Source: Escherichia coli (lineage in GTDB: Bacteria > Pseudomonadota > Gammaproteobacteria > Enterobacterales > Enterobacteriaceae). Taken from it: a stretch of 64,000 bases of DNA. The DNA lies in NCBI RefSeq assembly GCF_965641715.1, contig NZ_OZ282453.1; one strand, given 5' to 3'. The notes under the pieces were generated by a model that was not told the DNA's origin, ran no database searches, and saw nothing but the letters and a program-made list of their open reading frames with translations. How positions within the stretch are numbered: the stretch's first letter is position 1; each line of letters starts with the position of its first letter. This document shows positions 11,494 to 61,960 of the stretch, one piece after another. Position numbers and translations under genes: made by a program.

Positions 11494-11570
<77 letters not shown>

Positions 11571-11603
11571 TCACCGTACTGCTTTTACTTCATCAAATTT
11601 GAT

Positions 11604-11680
<77 letters not shown>

Positions 11681-11713
11681 TCACCGTACTGCTTTACTTC
11701 ATCAAATTTTAAT

Positions 11714-11790
<77 letters not shown>

Positions 11791-13124: not shown

Positions 13125-13310
13125 ATATGACAGGGTGAGGGGTAACCTCACATCCTGATTATTGACTAAGTGCGCGTTGTTCATGCCGGATGCGGCGTGA
13201 ACGCCTTATCCGGCCTACAAATCATGCAAATCCAAAATATTGCAGGAGTTATGTAGGCCTGATAAGCGTAGCGCATCAGGCATTTATGCGTTTAGGGTGA
13301 GGGATAACCT
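13125..13310. repeat. BIME-like cluster of REP palindromes between mltA and tcdA
   Basis: gccggatgcggcgtgaacgccttatccggcctac and gtaggcctgataagcgtagcgcatcaggc REP units flanked by gtgaggggtaacctcac-type palindromes. Confidence 0.6.
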
Positions 13311-16275: not shown

Positions 16276-16481
16276 AAAAAAAAGCACCGCAATTAGGCGG
16301 TGCTACATTAATCACTATGGACAGACAGGGTAAATGTACAGGAAGTGAAAAAAGGTAGCTTTGCTACCATGGTCTGAATCGCAGACCAATTGCAAACACA
16401 ACAACACAACATCACAACCGTAAGCCAAAAGTTCACCAGAACACGCATTCCGACAAAACTTTTCGTTCCGGCTCAGGAAGT
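16276..16481 (-). ncRNA. gcvB: GcvB small regulatory RNA (Hfq-dependent, represses amino-acid/peptide transporters)
   Basis: Minus-strand sequence starts ACTTCCTGAGCCGGAACGAAAAG, contains the GU-rich TGTGATGTTGTGTTGTTGTGTT region, and ends in a GC hairpin plus U8; divergent from gcvA. Confidence 0.85.
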
Positions 16482-19866: not shown

Positions 19867-20289
19867 TTACGGTGTTACCCCTTTTTTTAAAAGAATATTC
19901 CCGTACTTCGCTCGTTCGCCTGTGATAACGATCGCAAAGGCTTTTTGCGCCCGTTCATAAAACGCAAAACGATTGATGCGGATGATGTCAGGACAGGGAG
20001 CTTGTAGTGAAAGCGCATTACGGTAACGTCGTTCTACTTCAGGATCGAGAGTGTCACCTTCTACCGCTGCCATCATCACCAGCGGCGGTGCATAACTGTC
20101 CAGCTCAAATAACGGGATAATCGCCTGGAGCAAGTCGCTCACCAACAGGCCATCAGCGCGGATCACCTGCGGTCCCATCGAATGGGCGGGAAAGTGAGCA
20201 TCGGAAAAAATAATTTCATCTCCATGTCCCATCTCTGCCAGCACTTTCAATAGTTCGGGAGAAATTAACGGCGAAATTGTTTTCAGCAT
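19867..20289 (-). CDS. fucU: L-fucose mutarotase
   Basis: 140 aa RbsD/FucU family. Confidence 0.9.
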
Positions 20290-24942: not shown

Positions 24943-25488
24943 AGCATCCTCTTAGGTTCAGAAGCTTAAGCACGTAATCGGTTATGTTTTCAAAAGTGCA
25001 AAACCAGCGAGTTCGGGCTTCATATCAGTGAATATTTGCCTGTCTGAAATGAACTCATGGATTCATTTTCAAATAAAAAACGCTCTGTAATATGACGGCG
25101 GTCACACTTATTAGCTGGAAGGTGACTTTATGTGACTACCATCACTTTAATAATCGAAATTTCATGCCCGTTTCAGAAAATAAATCATAAAAAACACAAA
25201 CCAGATGACCGTATTAATTGTTTATGCCGAAAACGGGCATTCCTGGCTTAGGTGAATAGAAAAATGACCGTTTTGATAAATATTTTTAAGAGCGGTCATT
25301 TTTAATGGGGTTATAAAAAGAGAACTTGCAGTTATTTACTGTGATTAGTTGAACCAGGTCACAAAATATAAGCTTGTGAATTTCTTTCTGGTTAATCAGG
25401 AAGAAGATGGTGGGTAATTAAACGGCTAATTCAATAGTGTGAAAGGAACAACATTATTGCCCTGTTTTGAATCAGAGAGAGGTAGCTA
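24943..25488. promoter_or_regulatory. Divergent fucPIKUR / fucAO control region
   Basis: 546-bp AT-rich intergenic region between divergent fucP and fucA starts; individual CRP/FucR sites not mapped here. Confidence 0.6.
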
Positions 25489-28233: not shown

Positions 28234-29601
28234 TTAATCGCAGGCAACGATCTTCATTGCCAGGCCGCCGCGAGAGGTTTCGCGGTACTTGGCGTTCATA
28301 TCTTTACCTGTTTCGTACATGGTTTCGATAACTTTATCGAGGCAGACGCGCGGCTCGCTGGTACGGCGCAGCGCCATACGTGCGGCGTTCACCGCTTTTA
28401 CTGCCGCAATGGCGTTACGCTCGATGCATGGCACCTGTACCTGTCCGGCGACCGGGTCACACGTCAGACCGAGGTTGTGCTCCATGGCGATTTCCGCCGC
28501 GATGCACACCTGCGCCGGGCTTGCGCCTAATAGTTCTGCCAGACCAGCCGCCGCCATTGAGCACGCCACGCCAACTTCACCCTGGCAACCCACTTCAGCA
28601 CCAGAAATCGACGCGTTCATCTTATAAAGAGAACCAATGGCGCTGGCTACCAGCAGGTAACGAGCCAGTGAGTTAGCGTTCACTTCGCGGATAAACTTAT
28701 CGTAGTACGCCAGCACAGCCGGGATAATCCCGCACGCACCGTTAGTCGGCGCAGTCACCACGCGACCGCCAGCGGCGTTCTCTTCGTTCACTGCCAGTGC
28801 AAACATGTTGATCCAGTCAACAACCGCCATCGGGTCAGTGGTGGTTTTATCCTGGCTGACCAGCATCCGGCGTAGTGCCGCAGCACGGCGTGGAACGCGC
28901 AGTTTGCCAGGCAACACGCCTTCGGTAGAAATACCGCGCTCAATACCGCCGCGCATGACTTCCCAGACGTTCGCCAGGTGCTGTTCCAGCTCTTCTTTGC
29001 TGTGCAGCGCCAGCTCGTTTTTCATCATCAGGCCAGAGAGTGACAGCCCGGTTTCCTGACAATGTTTTTGCAGATCGGCTGCTGAACTGTACGGATAAGG
29101 AACTTCAACCGGTGCGCTATCCTGCTGGCCAAAATGCTCTTCATCAACGATAAAGCCACCGCCAATAGAGTAGTAAGTCTGACTGTAAACGACTTTATCA
29201 CCCGCCAGCGCGGTAATGCGCATACCGTTTTCATGCAGAGAAAGGTTGTCTGCATGGAAGTTCATGCACTGATCAACCGGGAACTCCACTTCATGCTGAC
29301 CGTTTGCCAGCATCAGGCGACCATGAGTATTCACATCCTGAATAAAACCAGGGATGGAATCGATATCCACGGTATCCGGCAGGTTACCCGCCAGGCCCAT
29401 AATAATGGCGATATCAGTGTGGTGGCCTTTACCAGTCAGAGAGAGCGAGCCGTACACGTCAACCACCACGCGGGTCACGTCTTTAAGCAGGTTACGGGCA
29501 ATCAGATCGTCGGTAAATTGTTTACCCGCTTTCATTGGTCCAACGGTATGAGAACTGGAAGGGCCAATGCCGATTTTGAAAATATCGAATACGCTAATCA
29601 T
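28234..29601 (-). CDS. sdaB: L-serine dehydratase 2 (Fe-S)
   Basis: 455 aa recognised as SdaB. Confidence 0.95.
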   Translation of the reverse strand: MISVFDIFKIGIGPSSSHTVGPMKAGKQFTDDLIARNLLKDVTRVVVDVYGSLSLTGKGHHTDIAIIMGLAGNLPDTVDIDSIPGFIQDVNTHGRLMLANGQHEVEFPVDQCMNFHADNLSLHENGMRITALAGDKVVYSQTYYSIGGGFIVDEEHFGQQDSAPVEVPYPYSSAADLQKHCQETGLSLSGLMMKNELALHSKEELEQHLANVWEVMRGGIERGISTEGVLPGKLRVPRRAAALRRMLVSQDKTTTDPMAVVDWINMFALAVNEENAAGGRVVTAPTNGACGIIPAVLAYYDKFIREVNANSLARYLLVASAIGSLYKMNASISGAEVGCQGEVGVACSMAAAGLAELLGASPAQVCIAAEIAMEHNLGLTCDPVAGQVQVPCIERNAIAAVKAVNAARMALRRTSEPRVCLDKVIETMYETGKDMNAKYRETSRGGLAMKIVACD

Positions 29602-29658: not shown

Positions 29659-30948
29659 TTAGCTGAACAGAGAGTAGAAGATTGCGGAGATTGCAATCAG
29701 ACCCATCACGACAACGAATACGTTGCTGATGTGACCGCTGTACTTACGCATTGCCGGTACTTTCTGAATTGCGTACATCGGCATCAGGAACAGGATCATC
29801 GCGATGATTGGGCCGCCCAGGGTTTCAATCATACCCAGGATGCTCGGGTTCAGGGTGGCAACAATCCAGGTCGTTACCAGCATGAACAGCGCAGTGATAC
29901 GGTTCAGCTTGTTGATTTCAATAGACTTACCTTTACCACGCAGAGATTTAATCACCATACCGTTGAAGCCTTCACGTGCGCCCAGGTAGTGGCCGAGGAA
30001 GGATTTGGTGATAGCGATAATCGCGATAATCGGAGCCATCCACGCGATAACCGGTGCGTTAAAGTGGTTAGCCAGGTAAGACAGAATCGAGATGTTCTGC
30101 TCTTTAGCCGCAGCCAGGTCTGCCGGAGTCAGGCTCAGTACGCAGCTGAAGACGAAGAACATTACGGTCAGCACCATCATGATGTGTGCGAATGCCAGGA
30201 TCTTCGAGCATTTCTGTTCTGCCATATCGCCGTACTCTTCACGCTTCGCAACGGCGAAAGAAGAGATGATCGGAGAGTGGTTGAACGAGAACACCATTAC
30301 CGGAATTGCCAGCCACAGGGTCATCCACAGACCGTTTCCGGTTGCAGATGCAGTGTCCAGAGACAGCGTTTCCAGTGCTGCGCCGTTCCACTGCGGGATC
30401 AGGTACAGAGCCAGCAGCATCAGTACGCCAACAAACGGGAATACCAGAATACTCATCGCTTTAACGATCATCTGTTCACCAAAGCGAACGATGGTCATCA
30501 TACCCACGATCAGGATCAGCGACAGAATCGCACGCGGCGGTGGTGTCATACCCAGCTGGTGAGACATGAAGCTTTCAACTGTATTGGTGATTGCCACGCT
30601 ATAAACCAGCAGGATCGGGTAGATAGCGAAGAAGTAGAGCAGGGTAATCAGTTTACCTGCGCCAATACCAAAGTGTTCTTCTACAACCTCGGTAATGTCT
30701 TCGCCCGGGTTTTTACCAGACAGTACGAAGCGAGTCAGGCCGCGGTGAGCAAAAAACGTCATCGGGAACGCAAGGATAGCCATGATGATCAGCGGGATCA
30801 TACCGCCAACACCGGCGTTGATTGGCAGGAACAGCACGCCCGCGCCGATTGCCGTGCCGTAAAGGCCCAGCATCCACATGGTGTCTGTCTTGCGCCAGGC
30901 ACTACGAGAGTCTTTCGACGCAATCGTGCTGGTTTGAGTCGTTTCCAT
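29659..30948 (-). CDS. sdaC: Serine:H+ symporter
   Basis: 429 aa polytopic membrane protein recognised as SdaC. Confidence 0.95.
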
Positions 30949-31504
30949 CTATTTCTCCTGGAGGAATGCAAATAATTCAGCTTTTAGCCAGTTCAGCCCG
31001 GGAAGGTGCCTGACCGTAAAAATGAAATCTGTCTATCGGCGATGGCTTAATCATTTACCGCCGTAATAATTTGAGGGCGGAAAGATACACACAAGTTATG
31101 TATCTATCAGTGATCTTGATCCCAAATACAATAATCTACTTGGAAGATAGATTATCCCAACGCTTTACTCTGTAAATCAAAAGTAAAAGAGAATTTAAGG
31201 GCAATATTTGCCCATTAAACGACATCTGACTTCTTCCGGGGCGCGCAATATATGTAGGTTGAACTGAAAAAATCAATACTTTTAGTTAATCATGGCGATA
31301 ATTTCTTTTTCATAGCGATAAAATACGGTTTATGAAAATAGGGAAACGTTTGCGTTGCAATATAAATTGTATGACATATTAACTGTGATGATATTTGTCG
31401 CGTGAGGGTGGTAAGAAACATTCATATAACAAATGAAATGAGTTGATGAGTAAGTGACCAAAAACGAGAAAACCCGGCAACAAACGTCACCGGGGGAGGG
31501 GAGA

Positions 31505-32869
31505 TTACGTGCAGATTTCGTAGCAAGGGATGTAGGCTGAGCCTGGCAACTTCATACGATGCTGGGCAACAAAACCCTGTAGCAGGTCGTCCATACGACG
31601 CATAATCTCTTTATCGCCGTTGATTTTGTAAGGACCAAACTCTTCAATGGCGCGAATACCGACTTCTTTTACGTTACCCGCCACAATACCGGAGAACGCA
31701 CGGCGCAGGTCGGCAGCCAGCACTTCAACAGGTTGATCCGGGTAAAGCTTCAGATTAGCCATATTCTCGTGAGACGGCTCAAACGGCATTTGCAAATCTG
31801 GTGCAATGCGCATTGACCAGTTAAAGCTGTAAGCGTCACCAGTGTCGCGGCGATTTTCTTTCACCAGCGGCATCGATTTTTTCATCTGACGAGCGACTTC
31901 AGCGGCGTCATCAATGATGATGCGGTAATGGCGGCGCGCGTTTTCACCCAGCGTATGCACGACAAACTCGTCCAGTACGCGGAAGTAGTCGGCGCTCTCT
32001 TTCGGGCCGGTGAGGATCAATGGTAAAACCTGATCTTTGTTGGCCGGGTTCATTAAAATTCCCAGCAAATACAGCAACTCTTCTGCCGTACCCACACCGC
32101 CAGGGAAGATAATGATACCGTGAGCGATACGGACAAACGCTTCCAGACGTTTTTCGATATCTGGCATGATGATCAATTCGTTGACCAGCGGGTTAGGCGG
32201 TTCAGCGGCGATAATCGACGGCTCTGTCATACCAATAAAACGACTGTCTTTGTAACGCTGCTGCGCGTGTCCGACCGCAGCACCTTTCATCGGCGCTTCC
32301 ATCGCTCCCGGACCACAGCCGGTGCAGATATTCAGCTCACGCAGGCCCAGCTGGTTTCCGACGCGACGGGCATACAAATACTCATTTTCGTTAATTGAGT
32401 GACCGCCCCAGCAGACCACCATATTTGGCGCTTCACCCACATGCAGCGCGCGAGCGTTACGCAAGATGGAAAAGACCAGGTTAGTGATGTGGACGGAGTT
32501 GTCGAGATTCAGGTTGGGAAAACGAACGGTGTTATGGATTTGCCCGTAAACGAAGAGAATGTCTCGCAGAACCGCGAACAAGTTGGCCTGCAAAGCGCGA
32601 ATAATTCGCCCATCGACAAAAGCCTCTTCCGGGGGATTAATCAGTTCCAGCTTTACGCCGCGTTCACGGCGCAGGACGTTAATATCGAAATTTTCAAAAC
32701 GAGACAGCAATTCTTTGCTGTTATCGGTCAAACTACCGGAGTTCAGTACGGCAAGTGAACAGTTGCGAAACAATTGATAGAGGTCGCTGCTGGCGGTGCG
32801 TTTAAGCATATCCACTTCCAGCTGCGACAACATATCCATGGAGCCAAGCGGGCTAATATGTGTAATCAA
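31505..32869 (-). CDS. ppnN: Nucleotide 5'-monophosphate nucleosidase (LOG family)
   Basis: 454 aa recognised as PpnN/YgdH. Confidence 0.9.
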
Positions 32870-34652: not shown

Positions 34653-35019
34653 GTCGACAGGGAGTCAGACAACGAAGTGAACATCAGGATGATGACACTT
34701 CTGAAGGACACACCAGGATGGTGTTTCAGGGAAAGGCTTCTGGATGAAGCGAAGAGGATGACGCAGGACGCGTTAAAGGACACCTCCAGGATGGAGAATG
34801 AGAACCGGTCAGGATGATTCGGTGGGTCAGGAAGGCCAGGGACACTTCAGGATGAAGTATCACATCGGGGTGGTGTGAGCAGGAAGCAATAGTTCAGGAT
34901 GAACGATTGGCCGCAAGGCCAGAGGAAAAGTTGTCAAGGATGAGCAGGGAGCAACAAATGTAGCTGGAATGCTGCGAAACGAACCGGGAGCACTGTGAAT
35001 ACAGTGCTCCCTTTTTTTA
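34653..35019 (+). ncRNA. csrB: CsrB small RNA (CsrA-sequestering RNA)
   Basis: Starts GTCGACAGGGAGTCAGACAACGAAGTGAAC; about 18 GGA-containing CAGGAUG-like motifs; ends in hairpin gggagcactg...cagtgctccc plus T7. Confidence 0.9.
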
Positions 35020-35063
35020 TTCCTGCTATCCTTCGCGGCAGTTTTTCTTATTGAGGTTGCTTT

Positions 35064-61714: not shown

Positions 61715-61960
61715 ATCGTATTCCCATTTGTAATAGACAAAAAAAAGAGAAAAGTAAGCCGCCCTTTCAGGTGGATTACTTTTCTCAGGTCTCTAGTAAT
61801 TGAAATAATAAATAACATGGAAAGCAGAGGTGTTGTGTGAGAGTAATCACGCTTCTGCTTTTTAAAACTATTTGATAATGCGAATATCACACTGTGATTA
61901 CGATCACATTAGCAGTTATGTCCTTATGCTACAAATTATCTCCAGTTACCAGAGATAATG

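Follow-up and report, generated by a model that had tools for sequence, protein, structure and literature searches.

Between ppnN and sdaC, two minus-strand genes of Escherichia coli, lies a long stretch of AT-rich DNA that is left without annotation in the RefSeq records of both O157 and K-12. Reading from the letters alone, the first-pass annotation proposed that it might be a long regulated leader, a set of binding sites for nucleoid proteins, or an unannotated small RNA. The question raised by this locus is which of these functions, if any, the spacer serves. The sdaCB operon encodes serine import and deamination and influences how serine is used, whether cells survive when glucose runs out, and the entry of colicin V. 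We analyzed the spacer within a stretch of 64,000 nucleotides of E. coli DNA (the window, to which all positions refer unless they are marked as K-12). We conclude that the spacer is very probably a multi-input region through which sdaCB is controlled both transcriptionally and posttranscriptionally. Its biology is already known and it contains no hidden RNA or protein gene; the outcome of the analysis is a base-level map that joins scattered reports.

Extent, composition, and conservation of the spacer

The open reading frame (ORF) list and the RefSeq annotation agree on a spacer of 556 bp at 30949-31504 with no gene inside, as first described: the stop codon of ppnN occupies 31505-31507 and sdaC starts at 30948. 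The gene sdaB (28234-29601) lies on the same strand as ppnN and sdaC. The AT-richness originally noted is also real, with a G+C content of 0.379; the whole window has 0.506, and the spacers of the surrounding 40 kb taken together have 0.433. Over the core at 31250-31450 the G+C content is 0.30 (range, 0.28 to 0.32). Describing the spacer as rich in A/T tracts was an overstatement, as the whole spacer holds four runs of A or T of at least five bases. Its length, which had been called unusual, does rank second among the 31 spacers of the 40 kb (median, 70 bp), of which the remaining long ones contain CsrB, GcvB, or the divergent fucA/fucP promoters. In E. coli, however, it is normal for a regulated operon to be preceded by a long AT-rich spacer, and this one belongs to the upper tail of the length distribution and is no anomaly.

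The spacer had further been described as running from the ppnN terminator to sdaC. The gap is real, but the terminator lies inside it. The terminator scan identified a stem of nine pairs, six of them G-C, with a hairpin energy of -14.9 kcal/mol, and Term-seq places the primary 3' end of ygdH/ppnN at K-12 2927709, which corresponds to window position 31468 (PMC7815308 supplement). In the same supplement, the next 3' end is found at K-12 2928350, inside sdaC. Termination is not complete, and a ppnN-sdaC read-through transcript beginning at K-12 2926271 is listed in the SMRT-Cappable-seq table (PMC6131387). Two further 3' ends were observed in passing. The one at K-12 2928350 (window 30827) lies 121 nt inside the sdaC coding sequence. 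The other, at K-12 2929551 (window 29626), lies 25 nt before sdaB and follows a G+C-rich hairpin; it fits the SMRT-Cappable-seq transcripts that cover sdaC alone and suggests that transcription partly terminates between the two genes.

Compared with its K-12 counterpart (2927673-2928228), the spacer has three single-nucleotide polymorphisms and no indels, and K-12 data can therefore be transferred to it base for base (k = 2928229 + 30948 - w, where w is the window position). An 851-bp query across the spacer was 100% identical to O157:H7 and further strains, and it found a copy of at least 95% identity in 5,420 of 5,426 complete E. coli genomes. For comparison beyond the species, one genome per species was scanned, which yielded 80 loci with close relatives of SdaC. 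In 76 of these loci, all from Enterobacteriaceae species, ppnN lies directly upstream of sdaC, and the spacer measures 436 to 648 bp (median, 504), indicating that a long spacer is a conserved property of the locus. Conservation is distributed unevenly along it. The terminator and the YieP region are poorly conserved, with 0.1 to 0.3 of species identical to E. coli, and conservation is intermediate from the PurR box to approximately 31150. At approximately 31145-31055 it reaches the level of the flanking coding sequences (0.8 to 0.87), the most conserved block being the CRP site together with the -10 element, and it is high again over the ribosome-binding region. The features discussed below are collected in Table 1.

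Table 1. Features of the ppnN-sdaC spacer and its flanking genes (window positions)
Feature	Position	Strand	Remarks
ppnN coding sequence	31505-32869	-	Upstream gene of the spacer; ORF list and RefSeq; stop codon TAA
ppnN intrinsic terminator	31460-31494	-	Stem-loop 31494-31473, then T run 31472-31460
YieP site 1, ATTTGTTATATGAAT	31420-31434	-	Sequence from PMC8282354, located in the window
YieP site 2, ATATGTCATACAATT	31365-31379	-	Under IPOD-HR and ChIP-exo peak; located in the window
PurR operator, ACGCAAACGTTTCCCT	31340-31355	-	16-bp box; reverse complement of AGGGAAACGTTTGCGT
Direct repeat, TTATCGCYATGA	31290-31321	-	Two copies, 20 bp apart; repeat search, family D1
Distal sigma-70-type promoter	31247-31276	-	TTGATT, 18-bp spacer, TATATT, G+C-rich discriminator; promoter scan
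26-bp perfect palindrome, TTTAATGGGCAAATATTGCCCTTAAA	31194-31219	-	Followed by T-rich tract; read from the sequence
Conserved block, AAGTAGATTATTGTA	31127-31141	-	Just upstream of the CRP site; nearly invariant, 76 loci
CRP site, TGGGATCAAGATCACT	31109-31124	-	Centre 31116.5, -41.5 from the start
-10 hexamer, TATCTT	31082-31087	-	Proximal class II CRP-dependent promoter
Main sdaC start site	31075	-	SMRT-Cappable-seq, K-12 2928102
sdaC 5' UTR	30949-31075	-	127 nt, no conserved structure
Shine-Dalgarno region, CCAGGAGAAATA	30950-30961	-	ArcZ pairing site, -13 to -2
sdaC coding sequence	29659-30948	-	Downstream gene of the spacer; ORF list and RefSeq

Proximal and distal promoters of sdaC

Promoter prediction, one of the checks suggested at the outset, found two candidates in the spacer, a proximal class II CRP promoter and a distal promoter of the sigma-70 type. 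The proximal CRP site, TGGGATCAAGATCACT, agrees with TGTGA-N6-TCACA at four or more of the five positions in each half; the pattern TGNGA-N6-TCAC occurs six times in the window versus 1.96 expected. Both half-sites stay the same across genera, the six bases at the centre differ, and an invariant AATGTATCTTTCC follows; on this comparative evidence, the pattern is the signature of protein-binding DNA. The window strain and K-12 differ by one base in a half-site (TGGGA versus TGAGA). Binding in vivo has been documented by a CRP ChIP-seq peak at sdaC in enterotoxigenic E. coli (ETEC) H10407, with the site given as AGTGATCTTGATCTCA (PMC4287617), which is the reverse complement of the window sequence but for one base. 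In addition, sdaC has been described as "previously shown to be regulated by Crp" (PMC10882989).

The -10 hexamer, which has A-11 and T-7, occupies positions -12 to -7; a usable -35 element is lacking. Among the 63 species in which the anchors could be located automatically, the hexamer reads TATCTT in 55, and it lies equally far from the CRP site in every one of the 63. From this geometry across Enterobacteriaceae we had predicted a start at 31075, with leaders of 105 to 132 nt in other genera. SMRT-Cappable-seq reports that the operons b2796 and b2796|b2797|b2798 begin at K-12 2928102 (PMC6131387, Supplementary Data 2), which is exactly the predicted base. The starts of queF, ppnN, and xni lie 21 to 37 nt before their start codons in NC_000913.3, which indicates that the same coordinate system applies. 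This is a single start-site data set, whose size selection would leave out short transcripts. The mapped start, the TATCTT hexamer, and the CRP site at -41.5 together define a class II CRP-dependent promoter at 31075. We infer that this is the main, CRP-activated promoter of the operon, which would explain the catabolite sensitivity of sdaCB.

Like the class II promoters galP1 and pmelR, the proximal promoter carries a CRP box at -41.5 in place of a -35 element, together with A-11 and T-7; CRP is bound in vivo and the operon has been reported to be CRP regulated. It departs from that class in having an imperfect half-site (TGGGA or TGAGA), a CRP-like sequence that overlaps 15 bp downstream, at least three more regulators that bind far upstream, and an additional, weak promoter 165 bp away on the upstream side. 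We also noted an inverted repeat, GATAGATACA / TGTATCTTTC, at 31080-31108 (approximately -33 to -5), which takes the form GATACATT...AATGTATC in other genera. It overlaps the second "CRP site" that the ETEC study predicted, and a repressor might use it as an operator. PMC12003319 contained nothing on the sdaC promoter. Elsewhere in the window, further matches to the CRP box occur at 19922-19936, 25131-25145, and 61836-61908, and at least two of these are ETEC CRP ChIP-seq sites (fucU/fucR region and ygcW/yqcE).

The distal promoter has a predicted start at approximately 31240, which would give a leader of approximately 292 nt. Selection in starving colonies of a cya strain yielded an ATT insertion at K-12 2927928, or window 31249 (PMC8546631 supplement), which falls within the distal -10 element. 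Both this insertion and an insertion of a single A increase sdaC expression and permit growth on serine (PMC10882989); as read from the sequence, both would change TATATT to TATAAT. The SMRT-Cappable-seq table lists no start near 31240 (PMC6131387). These data suggest that the distal promoter is normally weak and becomes important once cAMP-CRP is absent, and that an improved distal -10 element would help cya mutants because the main promoter is CRP dependent. The promoter annotated from cya suppressor mutations is a separate site, 165 bp upstream of the class II promoter.

Downstream of the distal promoter is a perfect palindrome, found in Escherichia only, whose hairpin has an energy of -10.9 kcal/mol. 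It may be either a DNA operator or an RNA hairpin of the distal leader; Term-seq records no 3' end at this site, and the palindrome with its T tract does not register in the terminator scan. At the corresponding position, most non-Escherichia genera (L006-L082) carry a different conserved block, CGTTAATGGTAGCCTTCGCGCCCGTAAATTC. A reading of this block as a mini-ORF, M-(V/I/L)-A-F-A-P, was considered and rejected: third codon positions are equally conserved and there is no Shine-Dalgarno sequence, making a conserved DNA block the simpler interpretation.

Regulator sites far upstream of the main start

The suggestion that the spacer holds binding sites for nucleoid or global regulators has been borne out, as binding of CRP, PurR, and YieP is documented and an Lrp site is annotated. 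The two YieP sites are known from IPOD-HR, DNA pull-down, gel shift, ChIP-exo, and reporter assays, as well as from the effect of a yieP deletion and from lacZ assays with scrambled sites (PMC8282354). Site 1 is not conserved outside Escherichia.

The PurR operator is a palindromic 16-bp box that agrees with ACGNAAACGTTTGCNT at 13 of the 14 specified positions. It is not a new discovery, as its reverse complement is given for sdaC-sdaB in the 2011 PurR ChIP-chip table, with a log2 enrichment of 2.08 in the presence and 0.83 in the absence of adenine (PMC3159470). In the accessible text of that article, we found no mention of a PurR-dependent change of sdaCB expression in a purR mutant. As in the PurR operators of purC, glyA, and gcvT, the box is 16 bp long, it is bound in vivo, and adenine raises the signal. 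In contrast to those operators, which sit over the -35 and -10 elements, the sdaC box lies approximately 273 bp upstream of the main start and approximately 107 bp upstream of the distal-promoter start. Three Buttiauxella loci (L069, L072, and L073) are without a PurR-like box and carry AATGTTACCGGTA at the corresponding place upstream of sdaC. This sequence resembles an operator for GntR, a LacI-family protein, and hints at a change of regulator in the genus.

The distance of the PurR-like box is conserved. Measured from the predicted sdaC start, 45 of the 63 species have it at -272 to -274 and 48 have it at -268 to -279, and its distance to the centre of the CRP site is 231 to 232 bp, or approximately 22 helical turns. 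The approximately 230 bp between the two sites have accumulated many substitutions but essentially no indels across species. The length of the leader, by contrast, is free to vary, as is that of the DNA on the far side of the PurR box. This comparison suggests a constraint on spacing, such as would be imposed by looping, wrapping, or a phased array of sites. It is possible, although we regard it as doubtful, that the upstream 280 bp act as one phased nucleoprotein unit through a PurR complex or a PurR roadblock. If so, PurR might join Lrp, CRP, or YieP in a loop or wrapped complex that would couple purine status to serine catabolism; alternatively, PurR might form a roadblock against ppnN read-through and distal-promoter transcription. 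A precedent for a PurR roadblock is purB. We found no published description of a looping, wrapping, or roadblock mechanism for sdaCB. The PurR and YieP sites, 273 to 352 bp upstream of the start, are far away for simple activation or repression, and this is an observation that speaks against a control region of the kind we propose. That such distant sites are held at a conserved distance poses a small question of promoter architecture.

Between the PurR box and the distal promoter lies the direct repeat, the first copy of which is partly conserved as TTTATC. Closer to the main promoter, the conserved block AAGTAGATTATTGTA may be an Lrp site or a contact for the alpha-CTD. It is the sole match to the Lrp consensus in the spacer (12 of 15 positions), in a scan that has no statistical power here (83 matches versus 82.7 expected). 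An Lrp site is annotated here in EcoCyc, as cited in PMC8282354. The spacer resembles the multi-site Lrp-controlled regions of ilvIH and gltBDF in its long AT-rich upstream DNA, in its annotated Lrp site, and in having conserved blocks at fixed spacing over more than 200 bp.

The sdaC leader and alternative readings of the spacer

With the start at 31075, the main sdaC leader is 127 nt long and not approximately 550 nt, so that of the proposed long regulated leader the regulation stands and the length does not. The known regulation acts through the small RNA ArcZ, which base-pairs with positions -13 to -2, at the ribosome-binding site, and thereby represses sdaC (Papenfort 2009, summarised in PMC11331407); PMC7213987 and PMC5222698 support this repression. 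Using RNAduplex, we found complementarity between the K-12 ArcZ seed, UUUCCCUGG, and CCAGGAGAAA, which covers -12 to -3 and is interrupted by one bulge. The only strongly conserved sequence of the leader, TTCCTCCAGGAGA, is located at the ribosome-binding site. In relation to Hfq-dependent control by small RNAs (ArcZ with sdaC, tpx, and STM3216), sdaC shows no difference, being itself a published and validated case.

Nothing in the leader resembled a structured regulatory RNA. RNAalifold on 64 leaders gave -0.65 kcal/mol with six trivial pairs, and the folding stability of a 151-nt stretch (the leader with 24 flanking nucleotides) was not significant (z, +0.90). Rfam searches of 30949-31504 returned no match at gathering thresholds or at E-values up to 10. 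The Term-seq table has no entry from K-12 2927709 until 2928350, and hence no premature 3' end in the leader. Start and 3'-end data thus essentially amount to a short sdaC 5' UTR and no independent transcript, the outcome that the first-pass annotation had named as evidence against its proposal.

These observations are consistent with the following model. Transcripts of ppnN stop at the intrinsic terminator, with some read-through. The next approximately 390 bp of AT-rich DNA are mostly untranscribed and hold the two YieP sites, the PurR operator, the presumably weak distal promoter, the Escherichia palindrome, and the conserved blocks, probably including Lrp sites. Transcription starts at 31075 from the class II CRP promoter (CRP at -41.5, TATCTT, and no -35 element), which would be the main source of sdaCB mRNA. 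YieP, PurR, and Lrp would modulate sdaCB from upstream sites, and ArcZ covers the Shine-Dalgarno sequence of the 127-nt leader and thereby lowers translation. Published experiments stand behind the ppnN 3' end, the start site, the occupancy by CRP, PurR, and YieP, the effect of the -10 insertions, and the repression by ArcZ.

The alternative that survives best holds that the main sdaC 5' region is a longer leader, of approximately 290 nt from the distal promoter or approximately 550 nt by read-through, equipped with an RNA switch or attenuator. We consider this unlikely. A decent distal promoter is present, mutations in its -10 element raise sdaC expression, and the read-through transcript from ppnN exists; however, the mapped start is at 31075 and none is found near 31240. 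The distal leader would open with the -10.9 kcal/mol hairpin followed by the T-rich tract, but the hairpin is confined to Escherichia, no Rfam family matches, and Term-seq finds no 3' end in the spacer past the ppnN terminator. Folding of the 314-nt distal leader gave a z-score of about -1.6 (-1.61), which is not significant, as 9 of 100 shuffled sequences folded equally well. The best-conserved sequence of such a leader would be the CRP site and the -10 element, a signal in DNA rather than in RNA.

An independent small RNA is very improbable. The candidate would be 45 to 65 nt long and extend from approximately 31240 to approximately 31180, that is, from the distal promoter to the palindrome and T tract. 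A promoter-like site, a hairpin, and a U-rich tract do follow one another in order, and other long spacers of the window hold CsrB and GcvB. Against this, the U tract is interrupted, no Rfam family is matched, and the search for an RNA of 50 to 300 nt with its own promoter and intrinsic terminator found the ppnN terminator as the sole terminator-like site in the spacer. The 3'-end gap described above spans the candidate, and its hairpin (31219-31194) is Escherichia specific and thus not conserved across genera. The small RNA proposed at the outset is not upheld by these data.

A small protein or leader peptide, either a 29-amino-acid (aa) ORF (ATG at 31225, MSFNGQILPLNSLLLLIYRVKRWDNLSSK) or a 25-aa ORF (ATG at 31054), has slightly poorer prospects still. 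The former has four consecutive Leu codons, reminiscent of leader peptides, and a GGAAGAAG stretch upstream, and the latter lies inside the mapped leader. However, the 29-aa ORF is cut short by a stop at its third codon in one Escherichia locus (L005) and is absent elsewhere, and the ATG at 31054 is missing in all genera but Escherichia. Neither ORF shows a codon-position pattern of conservation. The Leu run coincides with the T-rich tract and comes after the hairpin rather than before it; classical attenuation therefore does not fit. More generally, the longest ORFs of the spacer encode 25 to 46 aa, none is conserved past Escherichia in the 76 loci, and searches of all spacer ORFs of at least 25 aa on both strands against Pfam and NCBIfam returned no match, in agreement with the original statement that the spacer has no convincing ORF.

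That the spacer is horizontally acquired or H-NS-silenced filler of no specific function, as the low G+C content of its core might suggest, is ruled out for practical purposes by the synteny of the spacer and its flanking genes in 76 Enterobacteriaceae species, the constant spacing of the conserved blocks (-273 for the PurR-like box and -41.5 for the CRP site), the documented binding of specific regulators, and the near-universal presence of the sequence in complete E. coli genomes.

The Rfam search of the window gave clear matches in two other long spacers, to CsrB at 34662-35021 (plus strand) and to GcvB at 16276-16481 (minus strand). CsrB is unannotated in the O157 RefSeq record used for comparison. 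Rfam matches were also obtained for ES036 (13218-13260) and three tRNA genes (11497-11790).
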